From positions 1-44,205 of IMG/VR virus record IMGVR_UViG_3300043443_000124: a stretch of DNA of 44,205 nt; one strand, 5' to 3'. Shown piece after piece: positions 31,090 to 43,600 of this stretch; within the stretch, counting starts at the first letter, position 1; each line of letters starts with the position of its first letter. A program made the translations under genes and the position numbers. Origin of the DNA: a virus. Taxonomy: Duplodnaviria > Caudoviricetes. Under the pieces are notes generated by a model that was not told the origin of the DNA, did not search any database, and saw nothing but the letters and a program-made list of their open reading frames with translations.

Positions 31090-31779
31090 TTAATTGACTT
31101 TAGAGTAGCGATCAGATAAGTTTTTGATCTGCTGAAGAGTGCCTTCAGTTAGCGAACCACTCGAAACCATAGCTCTAATTCTAGTACTAGCGTGTAGAGA
31201 CTTTACGTAGTCAGAGTCTTCGCTGAATGCAGTCAGTAGAGCTTCTCTTCCCGAATTGTCCAGGTCAGGAGCTCCAGCTACCCAAGCTGCGGCAGCCGAC
31301 ACAGCACATTCGGTGTCTGGGTGGCCTTCAGCAGTGAACTCTGCGTACATAGAGAAGTCTTCTCCATCCGCAACTGTTCCAGTTGTAGCGTATTCAGCAA
31401 ATGTGTGAAGCTCCCACATAATCGCTGAGTGGATGTCGTCGCAAGAAGCTAGGTAGCTGTACTTTTCCAAGGCAGCCCTAGCAACCGAGTATGCAGACTC
31501 CTTTGAAACGTGTCGAGAAACACCGAACGATGAGTTAACGTCATCAATCAAATAATTAATGGTGGCAGAAGAAGGTACGCAGTTAGGAACGCGCTTGCCA
31601 TTCTTCTCCTTCATGCCAACCTGAACATAGCCAGACCAGCAAGGATCATCCTCGTCCTTCTCTAGAGCAGCTTCAGTTTCAGTCTCCTCTTCAGGGGTGA
31701 TGATTTTTTCTTCAGTCAAAATCTCTTCTGGAGCTGTAGCTCCTCCAGTAGCTAGAATTACTTTTTCGATGTATTCCAT
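31090..31779 (-). CDS. Hypothetical head-region protein with a CWxGY...VPNCVP motif
   Basis: 229-aa ORF coupled to dps (TAATG); contains DPCWSGYVQVGMKEKNGKRVPNCVP. Confidence 0.65.
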   Translation of the reverse strand: MEYIEKVILATGGATAPEEILTEEKIITPEEETETEAALEKDEDDPCWSGYVQVGMKEKNGKRVPNCVPSSATINYLIDDVNSSFGVSRHVSKESAYSVARAALEKYSYLASCDDIHSAIMWELHTFAEYATTGTVADGEDFSMYAEFTAEGHPDTECAVSAAAAWVAGAPDLDNSGREALLTAFSEDSDYVKSLHASTRIRAMVSSGSLTEGTLQQIKNLSDRYSKVN

Positions 31780-32234
31780 TAGCGAACCCCTAAGAATGCC
31801 TTAATCTGCCAAATCCACTTAGCGTACATGTCCATGCGTGTAGCCAAGAAGTCCATTAGTCCCTGCAGATTGCAGTGGTTTGCGTGGCGGAAAGCCTCTT
31901 CATGGCAATCATAAAGGTGCTGGACAACACGAAGAGCTGACTCCAATAGGAATCTGCTAGAGCTGCCATCTTGACGATCTTCTCTAATACATGACATCTC
32001 TACGAAGTCTGAAAGAAGATATGGAGCTGGGAATCCAACCTTTAGGATATTCTCCGCTAGATCGTCGATAGAGCCGTCAACATCTGCATATAGCTCCCCG
32101 AAAAACTCGTGGTACTCGCCGAAGTCTGGGCCCATAACATTCCAGTGGTAGCCCTGAAGAATGAATTTTGCGGAGACTACATCAGAAAGCAGTACTGCTA
32201 ACTTCTGTGCTACGTCTGTCTTACTGCTTTCCAT
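31779..32234 (-). CDS. dps: Dps family mini-ferritin (DNA protection during starvation)
   Basis: Dps signature YHWNVMGPDFGEYHEFFGELY, ferroxidase segment DDLAE, C-terminal KWIWQIKA; 151 aa. Confidence 0.9.
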   Translation of the reverse strand: MESSKTDVAQKLAVLLSDVVSAKFILQGYHWNVMGPDFGEYHEFFGELYADVDGSIDDLAENILKVGFPAPYLLSDFVEMSCIREDRQDGSSSRFLLESALRVVQHLYDCHEEAFRHANHCNLQGLMDFLATRMDMYAKWIWQIKAFLGVR

Positions 32235-34262: not shown

Positions 34263-34622
34263 TTAGTCCTTTATCGAGCCTAGAGTGTTGTATGGATTCC
34301 ATCCTCTTAGACGTGATCCACACCCGCAGCCAGTGTCTTTCTTGAATGCTAGCATCTTTCCTGACGTTGTGACAATAAAAGAATCTTTTGTAGGCTCCTT
34401 CGAAGGAATGAAGGTGTCATATGTCTCTCGAAATACGATTTGCGGGCCATCATTTCCATCCTTTGCGACCACAACGTGTGTTTCGGTAACTATAACTCGT
34501 GTAATTTCGAGATAATTTGACCCTGGAGTGGGTTCGAAGCTTCTCATGGTCGTTACATCTTCAATTTTTTCTGGTCCGATGGCAGCTAAGTGGCATGGAA
34601 AGCGATCAAGCAGAATTCTCAC
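34263..34622 (-). CDS. Hypothetical protein with C-terminal GCGCG motif
   Basis: 119 aa; its GTG start overlaps the terminase stop codon. Confidence 0.6.
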   Translation of the reverse strand: MRILLDRFPCHLAAIGPEKIEDVTTMRSFEPTPGSNYLEITRVIVTETHVVVAKDGNDGPQIVFRETYDTFIPSKEPTKDSFIVTTSGKMLAFKKDTGCGCGSRLRGWNPYNTLGSIKD

Positions 34623-36049
34623 TATTTCACCCTAAAAACACGGCCTGCAGGGCGATTATTTGGGTTTACAACACCTAATTTGCGGTCTGCAAAGCTCTTT
34701 GCACGGATTTTACCGCCAGAAAAGCCTGGAGGTGGCTTAATTAGTAGCGCGGTGAGCGCGTGAACCAGTGCGTCGACACGGTCAGGAGACTTAGACGCAC
34801 TTTCTGGGATCCAAGAGTACATCTGAGACTCTAAATCTTGCAAATATCCGACGTGGTGGACGCGCTTTTGCTCGTAAGCAAGCACTACTGGCTCTGCACG
34901 GAGAGCTTTTCCATATTTTGAGTGAACTTCTAGGACCTTAATGGTCGGATCGATCGAGAGGATGGCATTTTTAACGAGAGCGCCACCCTGATTAACCTCG
35001 GCAACAACGGGACAACCCCACTTGCGAGCCATTTCCACAACTTTACGGGCCCAGGTGTCGGGGGAACCATGAATTGTAGCGTCTTCAAGAACCCAAGCAT
35101 TTCTTTTATAGAGATCTTGTTCTGCAGTCGCTGCGCAGACAACAATGCCGCACTCGTCACGGGGATTCTCAGCAACCGAAGGGTCCACGCCGATAACACG
35201 TAACGGAGTAGCTGGAGGGTAAACCATCTCTCTAGCCGATTCAACCATCTCTTCATTCCAAAGAGCTCCTTCAACGTCGTCTAGCATCTCACCGTAGAGT
35301 TCCTGACGAGCTAGGCTGGTTCCTTCATATACTCCAGTAATTGTGTCCAAGTATGCCTGAGACAAGTTACCAGCGTTATCTAGGGTCGAACCTCTAGTCA
35401 CAACTACCTTGGCACCACCAGGGCGGTCAGTGCGCGACTCTTCAATTAGTTTGTAAAGAAGCGGAACACGCTTTGGCGTAGTGGTACAAATCAGTTTTGG
35501 GTTTCTACCGAGACGAGTACCAACTCGAAGGTTGTCGAATGCGGTCATACCTGCAGCATCTGGAGTCTGACGCCAAGCTGCGATCTCATCACCCCATGCG
35601 TGCGTGAACTGAGGACCACGGAGAGAGTCAGGCTCATCCGCGGTAAAGAGTGTTGCGGTGTTTCCATTTGGCCAAGTTAGACGACGCTTCGAAGGCTCGT
35701 AGTGTGGCTTCTCGGAAGGCGGCGAAATGTTGATGATACCTGATTCACCTTCAACAATAACGTCACGTACGTCAGCTGCAGTACGAGCAACTAGAGCGAA
35801 TCGACGCTGACCTTCGTTGGTATATTTAGCTTCTTCACGAACCCACTCGGATGCAAGACGAGTCTTACCAAAACCACGACCAGCGAGAACTAGCCAAACG
35901 TTCCAGTCATCACCTTTCGGGGCAAACTGCTCTGGACGCCCCCAGACGGACCAGTCCCAGACTAGTGCTTCTGGATCCATACCAGCAAGAATCGCATTGC
36001 GTTCTTCTTCGGGCAGCGTTGCTAGCTGCTCCATGATGCTTTTACCCAT
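34622..36049 (-). CDS. terL: Terminase large subunit
   Basis: Walker A AGRGFGKT, LRGPQ, Walker B WGDE, motif III TTTP, RQELYGE, nuclease residues GVDP, EVNQGG and SPDRVDA. Confidence 0.95.
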   Translation of the reverse strand: MGKSIMEQLATLPEEERNAILAGMDPEALVWDWSVWGRPEQFAPKGDDWNVWLVLAGRGFGKTRLASEWVREEAKYTNEGQRRFALVARTAADVRDVIVEGESGIINISPPSEKPHYEPSKRRLTWPNGNTATLFTADEPDSLRGPQFTHAWGDEIAAWRQTPDAAGMTAFDNLRVGTRLGRNPKLICTTTPKRVPLLYKLIEESRTDRPGGAKVVVTRGSTLDNAGNLSQAYLDTITGVYEGTSLARQELYGEMLDDVEGALWNEEMVESAREMVYPPATPLRVIGVDPSVAENPRDECGIVVCAATAEQDLYKRNAWVLEDATIHGSPDTWARKVVEMARKWGCPVVAEVNQGGALVKNAILSIDPTIKVLEVHSKYGKALRAEPVVLAYEQKRVHHVGYLQDLESQMYSWIPESASKSPDRVDALVHALTALLIKPPPGFSGGKIRAKSFADRKLGVVNPNNRPAGRVFRVK

Positions 36050-36053
36050 AGAG

Positions 36054-36587
36054 CTATTCTAGCTCAGACATTGAACGTAGAGAAGAAACTGGTACCAAAT
36101 ATGTTGGCTTGCCGTTCTCTTCTCCATTAATTAGGTCTGGGCGAAGAACTTCATTTGGATAGCACCAACCGTGTGCAATAAAGTCTGGAGTTCTGTAGTC
36201 GTTGATTGCACTACGAATAATTTTCTTCTCTGGTCCACCAGTCAGAAGCACGTAGGGGGAGTTTAGTTTGTCAACATCTCCGCTGAATCTCAGGGTTGGC
36301 TCTCGTAAGCCGCCATCCGTGAAGCGGTAACGAACTTCCCAGATGCCGACATCTGGTTCGCCTTTACGGGTATTCACGCTAGGGGAAAAATCATCCATGC
36401 CAAGCATTCTGGCAAACGCAATCTCGGACATAACTGTCATTGTGTGCTGCCAGGTCTCCCACATATCTCCCTCGGAGTATCTGCGGTTTGCTTCGGGTGC
36501 GCCTAAGTACGGCTGCTGTCGAAGAAATCCAACGCTGCAGGCAAGTGCCTCTTCTGTGGGGGTAAGTCCGTAAGCCCATCTAGTCAT
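36054..36587 (-). CDS. Hypothetical protein, possibly nuclease-fold
   Basis: 177 aa; SEIAFA...PDVG.WEVR resembles a degenerate PD-(D/E)XK pattern. The function call is weak. Confidence 0.55.
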   Translation of the reverse strand: MTRWAYGLTPTEEALACSVGFLRQQPYLGAPEANRRYSEGDMWETWQHTMTVMSEIAFARMLGMDDFSPSVNTRKGEPDVGIWEVRYRFTDGGLREPTLRFSGDVDKLNSPYVLLTGGPEKKIIRSAINDYRTPDFIAHGWCYPNEVLRPDLINGEENGKPTYLVPVSSLRSMSELE

Positions 36588-36679: not shown

Positions 36680-36857
36680 TAGGTGGGATGCTTTTTACCA
36701 CCAGGGCCTAGCTATTACGGTTCCAGTAGATCCGCTTTTGAGCCCACATGACGTTTGTCCGCTAAGACGATCCGCTAAGATCCGCCACTGCCTTACCTGC
36801 CCCATATAGCTTTGCAGGTTATTCAGCCATACTCCAGATCTCCCGTCGGATTTCTGT
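36680..36857 (-). ncRNA. Structured noncoding RNA candidate (possibly related to the manA RNA motif)
   Basis: No long ORF. Own extended -10 (TGTTAGGAT near 36865-36873) and own terminator. Stems ACCTGC/GCAGGT, GATC-TTAGCG-GATC, GTC-TTAGCG-GAC and GGTGG/CCACC. The family link is from memory only. Confidence 0.6.
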
Positions 36858-36879
36858 TGAGAATATCCTAACACAAGGT

Positions 36880-37476
36880 TTAGCTATTTGTTGGCCATTT
36901 TTCATTTAAAGCTGAAAAAATTTCTCGAGTGTAGTCAAAAGCAATAATTGCCTCGTCGATAAACTTTTGATAATCCTCTGGAGCGATTAGAGTGTCCAGA
37001 TTCTCTCGGTACGTTTCCTTGTAGCGGACGCGATCTCCGATGTCATCGAAGTCGTAGAAGGATAGGAAGTTTGGCGGAATCGAAAGGTTGCGTGCAACGA
37101 GCGTTCCTATTGCCTGACCTCCTGAGAGGTCTCCGAGGTAGCGGACGTAGTGGTGCGCAAGAATGCGTACCTCGTCCTTCTTCTGAATAAGCTTGTTGAT
37201 GTGACGAACGTACTTTATTGTTTCGTTGAGAACAATCCTGGTTCCGATGTACTCAAGGTCGGCAATGATTCGCTCAAAGCGGTCAAGGCGGCGATCGAAA
37301 AATGGCAGCTTGCCTTCCCACTTTTCAATGGCTTCATATATTGGAGCAAGCTGAGCTAGATAGTCAAAGTATGCCTCTGATGGCAAATCACCCTTCATCA
37401 GAGCAACCATAAATGGACTGCGCTCAGCGGCAGCGTGAGCATCTTTAGATGCCTCGCGAACTGACTGAGAAAGCAT
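36880..37476 (-). CDS. Heme oxygenase (HO-1/HmuO family, biliverdin-producing)
   Basis: Proximal His in HAAAE, IYEAIE, signature AHHYVRYLGDLSGGQ, FYDF and FIDEA..AF. Confidence 0.93.
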   Translation of the reverse strand: MLSQSVREASKDAHAAAERSPFMVALMKGDLPSEAYFDYLAQLAPIYEAIEKWEGKLPFFDRRLDRFERIIADLEYIGTRIVLNETIKYVRHINKLIQKKDEVRILAHHYVRYLGDLSGGQAIGTLVARNLSIPPNFLSFYDFDDIGDRVRYKETYRENLDTLIAPEDYQKFIDEAIIAFDYTREIFSALNEKWPTNS

Positions 37477-37507
37477 AGGTAATCCTTACTGGTTTAGGGG
37501 GAATTAG

Positions 37508-37518
37508 ATTCTACCACA
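37508..37518 (-). promoter_or_regulatory. Extended -10 promoter for heme oxygenase
   Basis: Minus strand TGTGGTAGAAT about 30 nt upstream of the ATG, followed by an AAGGA ribosome-binding site; a variant of the GGTAAAAT element. Confidence 0.6.
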
Positions 37519-37520
37519 AG

Positions 37521-37571
37521 TAAAAGACGCGGGCCCGATCGAGAATTCCCAATCCAAAGCCCGCGCCTCTT
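37521..37571 (-). terminator. Terminator hairpin downstream of katG
   Basis: Minus strand AAGAGGCGCGGGC...GCCCGCGTCTTTT with additional inner pairing. Confidence 0.7.
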
Positions 37572-37633
37572 ACAGAGAGTTACGACCACGTGTCGCGGTG
37601 ACACCAATCGTTCATGCCTCTAGGTGCAGTCTA

Positions 37634-39820
37634 CTAGAACTTGTCTAGTGTTGTCAACTTATACCAGACCCAAACGAACTCGTCAACGAACTTCTCTAGC
37701 GCGTCGTCTGAAGCGTAAACCTCAGCGAGTGCACGTAGAACTGAGTTCGAAGCGAAGACTAGGTCTGCGCGGGTAGCGGTCCACTTGCGCTCTCCGTTGA
37801 AGTAGGAGTGCGAACCGTAGACGCCCTTCTGGTCAGCCTTTGGAGCCCAAGCAATGTTGATATCCAAAAGGTTACGGAAGTAGGAGTTGTCTAGAACACC
37901 AGGGGTCTCAGTGAGCACACCGTGCTTGGTGTCTCCGTGAGTTACGCCTAGTACACGTAGACCACCAACAAGAACTGTCATCTCTGGAGGAGTCAGACCA
38001 AGTAGGGCTGCCTTCTCTAATAGTAGACGCTCTGCAGCATCCTCCGTGCCTTCAGGGATCCAGTTAGTGAATCCATCGGCTAGAGGCTTCAGGTAGTTGA
38101 ATGACTCGACGTCAGTCCACTCCTGAGTAGTGTCAGTGCGCCAGTTCTCGAATGGAACTTCGCCTGAAACGCCAGCCAAAGATGCTGCACGCTCGATAGC
38201 AACGTTTGATCCAAGAATGATCAAATCAGACTTGACCAACTTAACGCCAGTGTCAGTAGCAATCTTTTCTAGAGTTGCTACAACCTCGTTGATCTCGTCA
38301 GCGTTGTTTGACTCCCAGCTAATCTGTGGCTCAAGTAGGACGCGTGCGCCGTTAGCACCACCGCGCTTGTCCGAGTTACGGAAAGTCGAGATAGCAGACC
38401 ACGCTGTGCGGATCAACTTAGGAGCAAGCTCTGGGTTGGAGTTAATTGCCTGAAGAATACCAGCCTTGAGCAGGTATAGCTCTGGTGCAGAGACTATCTG
38501 TACCGAAGTCTCTCCAATAACTGGATCCTGCCAAATTAGATCTTCAGTAGGAACCTCTGAGCCAACATAGCGAGAACGTGGGCCCATGTCACGGTGAGTT
38601 AGCTTGAACCAAGCGCGTGCGAATACCTCTGAGAAGTAGTCGAAGTCTGCAAGGAACTTCTGGCAGATAGCGTCATACTTCTCGTCACCGAAACGTAGAG
38701 CTAGGTCAGTAGTTAGCATGCGAATCTCAACGTAGTCGTTCTTCAGGTGAGCATGAGGAGCTAAGTGAATCTCGTCTGCTACTGGCTTCCACTGCTTGGC
38801 ACCAGCTGGAGACTCTTCAAGCTCCCACTTGTCGTACTCGTAGATCATCTTTAGGTAGTCGTTATCCCACTGAGTCGGGTTTGGAGTCCAAGTAACCTCT
38901 AGACCAGAGGAGATGGTATCTTCCGAGTGGCCCTTGCCCTGTGAGTTTGCCCAGCCAAGACCAGCCTGGTGGATGTCTGCACCTTCTGGCTCCTTGCCAA
39001 CCTGTGAAGCATCGCCAGCACCGTGAGTCTTACCGAAAGCGTGACCACCAGCAATCAGAGCAACAGTCTCCTCGTCATTCATTGCCATACGGCCGAATGT
39101 CTCGCGGATATCTGCAGCAGCTAGCTTGAAGTCTGGGTTGCCATCTGGACCTTCAGGGTTTACGTAAATAAGTCCCATCTGAACTGCAGCAAGAGGGCCC
39201 TCTAGAGTTTCTGCACCGCGTGACTCGTCGTAACGCTTGTTTGCTAGCCACTCGGTCTCTGAACCCCAATAAGTGTTGTCTGGCTCCCAAACATCTTCAC
39301 GTCCGCCAGAGAATCCATAAGTCTTAAGACCCATGTCCTCAAGTGCAACGTTACCTGCAAGGATCATCAAGTCAGCCCAGCTGAGCTTCTTGCCGTACTT
39401 CTGCTTAACTGGCCAAAGTAGACGGCGAGCCTTGTCTAGGTTTACGTTGTCAGGCCAAGAGTTAAGTGGCGCGAAACGCTGTAGACCCTGACCGCCACCT
39501 CCGCGACCGTCAGTTGCACGGTAAGTTCCCGCGCTGTGCCAAGCCATGCGAATAAAGAATGGACCGTAGTGGCCGTAGTCTGCTGGCCACATCGGGTGAG
39601 AAGTCTTCATAATCTCAGTGATATCGGCCTTAACTTGAGCCAAGTCTAGAGATAGGAATTCCTTCTTGTAGTTGTAGTAATCGTTTAGAAACGGATCACT
39701 CTTCTCCGAGTTGTGGGTAAGAGCATCAGTAGTTAGCTGCTCTGGCCACCACTTAGTTGTGTTGGTAGTTCCCGTAACGTTAGACGCTCCGTGCGGAACT
39801 GGGCATTTTTCTTCTGCCAA
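37634..39820 (-). CDS. katG: Catalase-peroxidase, full length with both domains
   Basis: WPADYGHYGP, distal RMAWHSAGTYR, SWPDN.NLDKARRLLWP, MGLIYVNPEGP, FGRMAMNDEET, proximal GGHAFGKTHG, TDLAL, WFKLTHRDMGP and C-domain SDKRGGANGAR. TTG start with GGAGAGGA. Confidence 0.98.
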   Translation of the reverse strand: MAEEKCPVPHGASNVTGTTNTTKWWPEQLTTDALTHNSEKSDPFLNDYYNYKKEFLSLDLAQVKADITEIMKTSHPMWPADYGHYGPFFIRMAWHSAGTYRATDGRGGGGQGLQRFAPLNSWPDNVNLDKARRLLWPVKQKYGKKLSWADLMILAGNVALEDMGLKTYGFSGGREDVWEPDNTYWGSETEWLANKRYDESRGAETLEGPLAAVQMGLIYVNPEGPDGNPDFKLAAADIRETFGRMAMNDEETVALIAGGHAFGKTHGAGDASQVGKEPEGADIHQAGLGWANSQGKGHSEDTISSGLEVTWTPNPTQWDNDYLKMIYEYDKWELEESPAGAKQWKPVADEIHLAPHAHLKNDYVEIRMLTTDLALRFGDEKYDAICQKFLADFDYFSEVFARAWFKLTHRDMGPRSRYVGSEVPTEDLIWQDPVIGETSVQIVSAPELYLLKAGILQAINSNPELAPKLIRTAWSAISTFRNSDKRGGANGARVLLEPQISWESNNADEINEVVATLEKIATDTGVKLVKSDLIILGSNVAIERAASLAGVSGEVPFENWRTDTTQEWTDVESFNYLKPLADGFTNWIPEGTEDAAERLLLEKAALLGLTPPEMTVLVGGLRVLGVTHGDTKHGVLTETPGVLDNSYFRNLLDINIAWAPKADQKGVYGSHSYFNGERKWTATRADLVFASNSVLRALAEVYASDDALEKFVDEFVWVWYKLTTLDKF

Positions 39821-39832
39821 TTTAGTCCTCTC

Positions 39833-40048
39833 CTAGTTGTCGTTCTTTAGGTGTGCGCAAACTGCACGCGCAATAGTGTCGGCAAACATTAGCTGCTGCT
39901 CTTCAGTGGAGTTGAACCATCCACCAACCTTTGGAAATTCCAAGGCTTTTGCATTTCCCGAAAGAATTTCATTAACTCGAGCTGCAACAAGAAGTGCAAA
40001 ACGCTCTTGCTGTAATTCTACGTTGTATTGGTCGATAAGTTCCTGCAT
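39833..40048 (-). CDS. Hypothetical protein
   Basis: 71 aa; coupled to the upstream HTH gene (TAATG) and ends 12 nt before katG. Confidence 0.6.
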   Translation of the reverse strand: MQELIDQYNVELQQERFALLVAARVNEILSGNAKALEFPKVGGWFNSTEEQQLMFADTIARAVCAHLKNDN

Positions 40049-40638
40049 TACTGGTTATCCTCGATCACTCGGTTGTCTTTAATAATCGGCTGGTAAACCT
40101 TGGACTTTGCAGTCTTTGGTTGAATGTACCCGTAGCGAGCCAAACGGAAGCGAATGGCACCATGAGTAATTCCAAGTCGTTTCGCCAAACGGTATAGCGT
40201 AACGCCTTCAACAGTTCGAGCATAGTTAAGCAGTGCAGTGTACTCCTCTGCTTCTGCTCGGTACTTAGATCCGTTCGCTCGAACCTGCTGTGCGTATGGT
40301 TGTAGCTCAAGCAAGCGGGCGAGAGTTTCTGGAGAAGGCTCGATATATTCGCGTGGCTGCTTCTCTGCAATAACTGGCGGCTCTGGGATCTCCACCTCAA
40401 GCGGGCCGATCAGATCTGCTGGCAACTTAGCAGCAGAGTTAGAAATCTGGCGAACGCGCTCTCTAGTGAGGCCACTGGCGTTTGAAATCGCTTCATATGT
40501 CCAATTAGCATCAACCAGCTCTCGAATTAGTCGATCTCTGCGGAAATTATCCGTGATCATCTCGAACTGCGCGTTAATGCTGTCTGGTAGGCGCTGGTTT
40601 TTCTTGATGTACTTCTTGTCGTCGCTTGTGGTAGTCAT
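40048..40638 (-). CDS. Double helix-turn-helix DNA-binding protein
   Basis: WTYEAISNASGLTRERVRQI (sigma region-4-like HTH) and VTLYRLAKRLGITHGAIRFRL. Confidence 0.75.
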   Translation of the reverse strand: MTTTSDDKKYIKKNQRLPDSINAQFEMITDNFRRDRLIRELVDANWTYEAISNASGLTRERVRQISNSAAKLPADLIGPLEVEIPEPPVIAEKQPREYIEPSPETLARLLELQPYAQQVRANGSKYRAEAEEYTALLNYARTVEGVTLYRLAKRLGITHGAIRFRLARYGYIQPKTAKSKVYQPIIKDNRVIEDNQ

Positions 40639-42277: not shown

Positions 42278-42307
42278 ACTGTAGCCTGCTCCCTGCAGAC
42301 GTGTCAA
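42278..42307 (-). promoter_or_regulatory. Sigma70/SigA-type promoter for the NlpC/P60 operon
   Basis: Minus strand TTGACA-18 nt-TACAGT. Confidence 0.65.
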
Positions 42308-42869: not shown

Positions 42870-43550
42870 TTTAGGGGCGTTTTTGATTTGGACGTAATTT
42901 TTTGAAAAAATTTTTGAAAATTTTTAGGGCGAAAAGAAAAAGGGGGGTAGGGGCGTTTTTTAAAAAGAGGGGGGTGTACAGAAGAGGAGGAGTTAGTACC
43001 TTAACGTCTACTGCTTTTGACGGGTGAGAGAGCAGCGGTATGTTTTCGGGTGCTCGCAATTTGTTTCCTAAAATCAAGGGGGTCTTGTCAAAACTTGTCT
43101 AGGGGTTCTTGACAAAATGTTTCAACCCTTGATTGAAAAAAATATTTATTTTTTCTAGGTTGCTTAGGTGATAGAGCCTAGGGGGGTCTAGGTCTAGGTC
43201 TATCTATCTATCTAAGTGTCTAGGTCTTACTAGGTGTCTATGTCTATCTAGCCCTTGCTAGGGGCTTGTAGGGGCTAGAAACCTGTCTAGGTGTCTGATA
43301 CTAGGAAGATAGGCAAAAGCCTTCCTAGGGGCGTTTACGGGCTGTTTAGGGCTATAAGTGTGTAGCAACTCTGGAAGGTGTGCCTGCCCTGCCTAGATTA
43401 TTTAATGCCCCCTGCCCCTAGTTGTCATAGCCAATAGCACTCAAAGGGGGTGGGGGGGTCTAACTCTAGGGGCTATGGGCAGTATGAGTAGGGCTAGGCA
43501 AGCACTCAATACTGGCTACGGCAAAGCCCCTAATTACCTATTTACGGCAA
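42870..43550. repeat. Noncoding low-complexity region with homopolymer tracts, nested inverted repeats and CTAG/CTAT tandem repeats
   Basis: TTTTTGAAAA twice, AGGGGCGTTTTT twice, AATCAAGGG/CCCTTGATT enclosing TTGTCAA/TTGACAA, and TCTAGGTCTAGGTCTATCTATCTATCTA; no credible ORF. Confidence 0.65.
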
Positions 43551-43555
43551 CGGCA

Positions 43556-43586
43556 AAGAAAAAACCCCCAGCCAAAGGCTAGGGGT
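43556..43586 (-). terminator. Intrinsic terminator
   Basis: Minus strand ACCCCTAGCC-TTT-GGCTGGGGGT followed by TTTTTCTTT. Confidence 0.8.
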
Positions 43587-43600
43587 CTTAGGTGGGTGGG

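Follow-up and report, generated by a model that had tools for sequence, protein, structure and literature searches.

The katG locus and its neighbours

The window analysed here, a stretch of 44,205 nucleotides that makes up IMG/VR record IMGVR_UViG_3300043443_000124, carries a siphovirus-type module with terL, portal, capsid and tail genes and polA; no tRNA gene was found in it. Positions 37634..39820 of its minus strand form a single open frame of 728 codons with a TTG start, while the plus strand is full of stops over the same interval. Pfam, NCBIfam, alignment to PDB structures and motifs all identify this frame as katG, coding for a catalase-peroxidase of 728 aa. The start codon lies 12 nt past the stop of a 71-aa ORF (39833..40048), and a Shine-Dalgarno site read from the sequence, AGGAGAGG (39827..39834, minus strand), overlaps that stop. 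Comparable purine-rich ribosome sites precede the gene in most of its phage relatives. An initial sequence-only reading of this DNA had placed the gene 12 nt downstream of a hypothetical gene of unspecified strand: it is this 71-aa ORF, on the minus strand.

All the neighbouring features are on the minus strand as well. The 71-aa hypothetical protein is conserved in the phage family, including relatives devoid of katG. Next to it, an HTH protein gene (40048..40638; Pfam, PHROGs and comparison of relatives) is the fixed upstream border of a cargo slot, the fixed downstream border being the terminase large subunit gene terL (34622..36049; Pfam, PHROGs). Between katG and terL are found a heme oxygenase gene of the HmuO/HO-1 type, hereafter HO (36880..37476; PF01126, 126 bits), a manA RNA (RF01745; 36672..36853) and a 177-aa hypothetical protein, which is variable cargo of the slot (36054..36587; PHROGs and relatives). 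Upon alignment with PDB 1iw0, HO keeps the proximal His14 and the distal GDLSGG motif. A Dps/ferritin-like gene (31779..32234), recognized by Pfam but below the NCBIfam Dps cut-offs, follows the portal gene; it is a core gene of the phage family, with or without katG. HO, the manA RNA downstream of it, and the Dps-like gene beyond terL and portal were absent from the sequence-only reading. Both sides of katG consist of viral genes, and a scan of 37 ORFs with Pfam and PHROGs detected neither a transposase nor a host housekeeping family, in agreement with that reading.

The manA RNA, described as cis-regulatory by Rfam (RF01745), scored 55.5 bits, barely above its gathering score of 55.2. Blastn matches to it were found in 30 fetched loci, repeats of the same contig included. 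It stayed below the gathering score in 8 related loci, and the blastn matches cover one of these 8 (L022). In this actinophage window, the RNA precedes a hypothetical gene or terL.

Candidate regulatory elements

Promoter and terminator scans of the window did not perform above chance (10 promoter sites, against 6.9 +/- 2.9 in shuffled sequences, and 5 terminators, against 7.0 +/- 2.5), and we therefore relied only on motifs conserved across relatives. The spacer between katG and HO has the same order in all 9 spacers compared (9/9): a hairpin with a T-rich tail, an extended -10 motif and a ribosome site. In the window, these are a long terminator-like hairpin followed by a T run (37522..37571), missed by the terminator scan, and an extended -10 motif (37508..37518). 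A hairpin is found in all 9 folded spacers, its sequence varying between them, and the -10 motif is conserved in all 9 aligned. This organization suggests that the transcription unit of katG ends with this gene, HO being transcribed from a separate promoter.

Between katG and the hairpin lies a conserved structured element of 48 nt (37574..37621). Its ends are invariant, while the hairpin in its middle varies and shows covariation, 4 of 15 predicted pairs having two-sided changes (the window row is a few bases short). It had no Rfam match at E ≤ 1, and its exact pattern was recovered in seven viral contigs (L269-L275). Boxes resembling -10 motifs lie 6-7 nt before it in several relatives. In the window, a sigma-70-like promoter motif (10 of 12) overlapping the 3' end of katG (37628..37657) probably drives this element, which is a candidate phage small RNA or riboswitch-like motif. 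A second sigma-70-like motif (10 of 12; 42278..42307), before an NlpC/P60 gene, is a candidate for the start of the unit ending with katG. Spacing and motifs are thus the grounds on which katG may be placed in a phage transcription unit, as the sequence-only reading had proposed. At 42870-43600, about 730 nt are devoid of long ORFs and contain repetitive low-complexity stretches, partly conserved in many relatives; they could be an origin, a genome end or a promoter cluster.

KatG is full-length and keeps all catalytic residues

The product of katG scored 953.3 bits against TIGR00198 of NCBIfam (cut-off 770.25; residues 5-728) and 1043 bits against PRK15061 (cut-off 981), and its residues 3-728 align with the solved KatG structure 5l05. 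The Pfam peroxidase domain matches two stretches of the protein, and the duplicated, heme-free C-terminal domain is present, the alignment running to residue 728. The enzyme is therefore full-length, as had been claimed. By eye, no signal peptide or lipobox was seen: residue 3 aligns with the start of 5l05, and there is no hydrophobic leader.

The motifs RMAWH, LIYVN and FGRMAM occupy residues 91-95, 217-221 and 242-247, respectively. We compared 28 rows, made of 20 phage copies and the 8 nearest cellular copies, of Rhodoluna type. Distal residues R91, W94, H95 and D124, the Met-Tyr-Trp adduct residues W94, Y219 and M245, the Arg switch R410, and proximal H260 and W311 were invariant in all 28. 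The proximal-triad D372, read from the TTDLAL motif, is present in the rows displayed and lies outside this count. The roles of the catalytic, adduct and Arg-switch residues are established in KatG enzymes, and the adduct is required for catalase activity. The distal Arg-Trp-His, all three adduct residues, the proximal His and the C-terminal domain listed in the sequence-only reading are all there, and the enzyme is probably functional. With bacterial HPI/KatG (TIGR00198; PDB 5l05 series and 2cca), it shares the two-domain length and the catalytic, adduct and Arg-switch residues. It differs from them by the states that the phage clade shares around residues 232-380, by a faster protein evolution, and by a C-terminal signature that it has in common with one Rhodoluna clade.

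katG is a genuine phage gene

Relatives of katG, 59-91% identical, were found in 29 IMG/VR loci (of 33 candidate stretches). In 19 of these, katG occupies the same slot, between the same HTH gene and terL. In the other 10 (L011-L021, L029), it is located at a second genomic site, beside nrdIEF and 2OG-Fe(II) oxygenases; the L029 contig has both katG at this second site and the terL of the family with an empty slot (L076).

Such a gene could also reflect a chimeric assembly, or a phage contig to which host sequence has been attached, and artefacts of this kind do exist. A tblastn search of GenBank phages returned 7 katG matches among 50,697 records (52-56% identity), which by titles and lengths appear to be host DNA. 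The best 'cellular' match to the window katG (73%; L105, RFTL01000005.1) is the reverse artefact, a phage contig of the same family binned into an Actinomycetota MAG, with terL and HO 87% and 81% identical to those of the window. In the present case, however, the synteny is identical in 19 IMG/VR loci, and part of the region was found in 20 public DNA runs from 9 studies, two of these runs being a possible source of the record. Junctions were checked in 4 runs from 4 other studies (X3, X4, X9 and X10): the HO-katG junction was bridged by X9 record 28 (36755-37859, 0 differences), and the junction between katG and its upstream gene by X9 record 30 and X3 record 14, so that contigs from two other studies bridge both. 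Depth was even over katG and terL in X3 and X4, and patchy in X10. Finally, the nearest cellular copies, from Rhodoluna, are only 67-71% identical, with a pS of about 0.7; neither near-identity to a bacterial katG nor host synteny, the signs of a chimera named in the sequence-only reading, was found. Shared synteny and bridged junctions rule out a chimera or host contamination, which we regard as practically impossible.

katG evolves under purifying selection and resembles phage genes

Ratios of dN/dS were computed by the Nei-Gojobori method, phage pairs being limited to those with pS < 0.6. Against its nearest phage copies (L001 and L003), the window katG gave 0.11 and 0.13, and phage pairs ranged overall from 0.07 to 0.28. 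These values are 2-3 times higher than among host katG pairs (0.05-0.095): selection on phage katG is purifying, but looser than on host copies. For codon usage (RSCU), the correlation of katG with the capsid and major tail genes was r = 0.88, the highest relative to 18 other window genes tested, against r = 0.64 for a Rhodoluna katG; GC3 in this comparison was 0.52 versus 0.37-0.41. A codon log-likelihood score could not tell phage katGs apart from cellular ones of higher GC content, and katG itself may be part of the host set used for it, so that we relied on the RSCU correlation and GC3. Both the dN/dS comparison with phage homologs and the codon comparison with the capsid gene had been put forward as checks in the sequence-only reading.

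The looser selection, together with the absence of katG from many relatives, could point to a recently captured or decaying passenger, bringing no benefit to the phage. This is highly improbable: no internal stop was found in any full-length phage copy extracted, the active site is invariant, codons are ameliorated, and the phage radiation is deep (up to 41% divergence). The earlier view of katG as a domesticated auxiliary gene is instead supported by purifying selection, residues invariant in 20/20 phage copies, phage-like codons, synteny and bridged junctions. Divergence of katG does not simply follow that of terL (L022: terL 96% and katG 65% identical to the window; L001: terL 89%, katG 91%), and by such comparisons katG alleles move among phages of the family.

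The cargo slot hosts alternative peroxide enzymes

We surveyed the slot in the best 80 of 437 terL loci, 53 of which span it entirely; grouping these at 97% terL identity yields 27 clusters, with 30 slot types. katG was found with HO in 6 slot types and alone in 4, a set of peroxiredoxin, TrxB and Trx genes with HO in 1 and alone in 1, HO alone in 1, and none of the three in 17. Within this sample, katG is therefore present in 10/30 slot types, and as both peroxide systems are absent from 18/30, it is dispensable.

In L035, L038 and L040, the peroxiredoxin set lies where katG sits in relatives (L038, 6981-8824; L035, 2081-3947). Its TrxB is above cut-off (385 bits, cut-off 343), its peroxiredoxin is AhpC-like and below the AhpC cut-off (100 versus 272), and its thioredoxin is just below. 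None of the 80 complete-slot loci gathered from all queries contained both katG and the set. Likewise, complete genomes G184 and G185 are positive for katG and negative for AhpC (G184 having one weak AhpC-TSA match under cut-off), and G186 is the opposite. Since the set occurs in only two slot types, the test has little statistical power, and the mutual exclusion is suggestive rather than statistical. A single cluster at 97% terL identity (L003, L005, L038, L040) includes phages with katG and HO, with katG alone, or with the peroxiredoxin set and a distant HO (40%). As relatives fill the slot with this non-homologous set, the slot appears to be selected for peroxide removal as a function, and we consider this swap the best evidence for such a selected role.

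At E ≤ 1e-20, the phage peroxiredoxin had no match in 183 genomes of the likely host genus (see below). Its relatives in viral contigs number at least 600; among the 80 that were kept (L189-L268), 78 had none of the slot-flanking genes of the family. The same cargo slot may also hold tmRNA and tRNA genes (L013, 8916-9709; L022, 13203-13274).

Heme oxygenase and the heme context

Among slot types with HO, 7/8 also have katG or the peroxiredoxin set, against 5/22 of those without HO (best 80 of 437 terL loci). When restricted to relatives with at least 87% terL identity, the same comparison gives 7/8 versus 4/6, and the co-occurrence cannot be separated from kinship. The phage HOs form a separate clade (55-95% identity), nearest to actinobacterial HmuO-like proteins. 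Marine cyanophages and a pelagiphage also encode HO-1-type enzymes (P-SSM2, P-HM1, Mosig), 28-34% identical to the window HO. Cyanophage HO pairs with bilin reductases, whereas HO of the window family adjoins peroxide enzymes, and bilin reductase (PF05996) was found in 0/5 related records, 3 of which are complete. On these 5 records, a role of HO as a bilin-pigment gene was rejected. Phage-encoded heme synthesis by way of ferrochelatase was also rejected, this enzyme being found in 0/5 related phage records.

We considered whether KatG might mainly bind or buffer scarce heme, or whether the peroxide that it clears might come from phage HO and 2OG-Fe(II) enzymes and not from the environment. 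The association of HO with peroxide enzymes, the second-site katG copies adjoining nrdIEF and 2OG-Fe(II) oxygenases, and a host-like contig in which HO and katG are one gene apart on the same strand (L187, G068:C132) would fit such a role. However, the association is confounded by kinship, 4 slot types have katG without HO, and replacement by a heme-free peroxiredoxin points to peroxide removal, not heme binding. We hold this role in heme or iron economy to be quite unlikely.

The likely host

The phage belongs to a family of siphovirus-type actinophages of about 125-155 kb, three relatives being complete records with direct terminal repeats. The nearest named terL is that of DSL-LC01 (74.5%), an uncultured, metagenome-assembled phage of the proposed 'Nanparkviridae' (PMC10611076), followed by those of Microbacterium phages (61-64%; Cece, A3Wally, Zooman, Big4 and Pumpernickel). 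All are large actinophages bearing WhiB, which was present in 5/5 related records. Unlike the window, DSL-LC01 and these Microbacterium phages have no katG match (tblastn, GenBank phages).

TrxB of one relative shares 70-74% identity with its counterparts in two Rhodoluna-genus genomes; the values are 63-64% in two Nanopelagicales-type genomes and 55% in an Ilumatobacteraceae genome. For NrdE of another relative, one of the two Rhodoluna-genus genomes gives a 78% match, and the other four genomes no close match. The tmRNA of L013 is a weak pointer, as it has only matches of 30-64 nt to two Rhodoluna-genus genomes. The host is thus likely, though not proven, to be a Rhodoluna-like member of the Microbacteriaceae. 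One record titled Bifidobacterium breve (L133, CAMDBB010000002.1) is probably mislabelled, katG and its neighbours matching Planktophila/Nanopelagicaceae.

We inventoried 183 Rhodoluna-genus genomes (the genus of G001), mostly incomplete MAGs, in which RecA was above cut-off in 171. katG was present in 57/183, monofunctional catalase in 0/183, ferrochelatase in 9/183 and heme oxygenase in 2/183. There is no overlap between the 8 genomes with a phage-like katG and the 9 encoding ferrochelatase. By the katG and ferrochelatase counts, a host of this kind would frequently have no catalase and rely on scavenging for its heme. Dependence on scavenged heme has been reported for acI (10.1101/2021.01.11.426183), in which tolerance to H2O2 was better in a katG-bearing strain than in one lacking the gene; in the available portion of that preprint, Rhodoluna is mentioned only as an outgroup. 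Our counts make heme auxotrophy probable outside acI, in the Rhodoluna genus.

Probable exchange of katG between phages and Rhodoluna

In a quick mixture-model tree of 50 rows, a single branch (SH-aLRT 91) separates the 20 phage copies from all other rows, the 8 Rhodoluna-type copies being their sister group. Together, they are set apart from other cellular katGs, including those of other Rhodoluna, by a stem of length 0.43 with support 100. In a FastTree of 173 rows (database homologs of unknown context), on the other hand, a shallow Rhodoluna-type clade of 43 sequences is nested in the phage radiation.

Trees of gene segments and AU tests (39 rows, LG+G4) explain this conflict by a disagreement between segments; as these were picked after viewing sliding windows, the p values below are optimistic. 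For residues 300-425, the union of Rhodoluna with the subclade of the window was rejected (p = 0.006, post hoc). For residues 600-728, phage monophyly was rejected (p = 0.033, post hoc), and Rhodoluna and the subclade of the window were joined with support 100. For residues 60-300 and for the whole length, phage monophyly was preferred, the alternative not being rejected (p = 0.08 and 0.20). As regards a host-derived katG homolog in the viral clade, monophyly holds for the catalytic region and is rejected for residues 600-728. The places where shared states cluster in the gene differ as well (KS p = 0.009; Mann-Whitney p = 0.09). Phage and Rhodoluna-type katG have therefore likely recombined, judging from these alignments. 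A test of the direction of transfer between phage and Rhodoluna was not significant (p = 0.40).

Discussion

We propose that, by means of a long-domesticated katG, the phage clears H2O2 in a Rhodoluna-like host that is itself poorly protected and scavenges its heme, and consider this model, taken as a whole, fairly probable. KatG would be made in the infected cell, take heme b from the host pool, probably scavenged, build its Met245-Tyr219-Trp94 adduct and remove H2O2. In a host often lacking catalase, this would shield iron enzymes and the replication of phage DNA against Fenton damage. HO, separately promoted, would probably free iron from heme, and the Dps-like protein would bind this iron. 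The model builds on observed sequence, residues, synteny, selection, codon fit, enzyme swap and gene inventories of the host genus. From them we infer the identity of the host, as well as that the enzyme is expressed and active, when it acts, and that it benefits the phage.

Several points count against this model: katG is dispensable, selection is looser than on host copies, the replacing peroxiredoxin is below the AhpC cut-off, and the host is not proven. In addition, HO would destroy the very cofactor that KatG needs, a conflict over heme that separate promoters may solve by keeping the two enzymes apart in time.

Alternatively, katG may be a lysogenic-conversion cargo, acting in a lysogen or carrier state and helping a catalase-less host in sunlit, H2O2-rich water rather than lytic replication. 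The host genus often lacks catalase, and DSL-LC01, the nearest named relative, was predicted to be lysogenic in what is available of its authors' account (PMC10611076). But no integrase was found among the 37 ORFs scanned in the window, which is about 30% of the genome, and three relatives are complete with direct terminal repeats. Moreover, katG has the codon usage of virion genes and belongs to a series of genes that all point the same way, towards the packaging module. We find this alternative unlikely, and keep to the model of peroxide removal during infection.

Viral katG has already been published, and this freshwater actinophage adds a well-supported case to a phenomenon already described. 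The sequence-only reading had called the gene rare in phages. This stands for GenBank phages, in which the few matches appear to be host DNA, but not for freshwater viromes, nor for the present family, given the slot types counted above. The statements that follow refer to the available portions of each source. In a 20-year lake virome, katG is among the most abundant auxiliary metabolic genes (AMGs), abundant and persistent (10.1101/2024.02.06.579183, Zhou et al.). In an estuary virome combining metagenomes and metatranscriptomes, viral katG transcript and/or gene abundance is higher at low salinity (PMC13390420). A review lists viral katG as 'not validated' (PMC12713726), and in PMC13547368 catalase-peroxidase appears as a host gene only. 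Like these freshwater and estuarine AMGs, the window katG is phage-encoded in an aquatic virus linked to actinobacterial hosts. Zhou et al. assign their katG viruses to Planktophila/Nanopelagicus, whereas the clade of the window points to Rhodoluna, and they consider katG viruses too scarce to protect host populations (10.1101/2024.02.06.579183). Heme oxygenase, peroxiredoxin, thioredoxin, ahpC and Rhodoluna are mentioned nowhere in their main text, though the supplement may cover some of them. More generally, in the main texts searched, including few subscription journals, no phylogeny of viral katG was found, nor any selection test, cargo slot, swap with a peroxiredoxin or link to HO.

To abundant but unvalidated viral katG, this locus adds comparative support, through selection, codon fit, the peroxiredoxin swap and a catalase- and heme-poor likely host genus, and it connects phage infection, in a way open to testing, with H2O2 and with the heme economy of bacteria that abound in lakes. 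The points deserving follow-up are the enzyme swap, the scarcity of catalase and heme synthesis in the host genus, and a possible back-transfer. On a longer time scale, phages might serve as a catalase reservoir for freshwater Actinobacteria that are streamlined and auxotrophic for heme, and a Rhodoluna clade might have regained katG, or its C-terminal part, from a phage. KatG and the peroxiredoxin/TrxB/Trx module would then be interchangeable, with HO and Dps mining the iron of scavenged heme. We put this forward as a tentative and rather doubtful extension. If such back-transfer is true, phages would be a source of host catalase, and not borrowers only.
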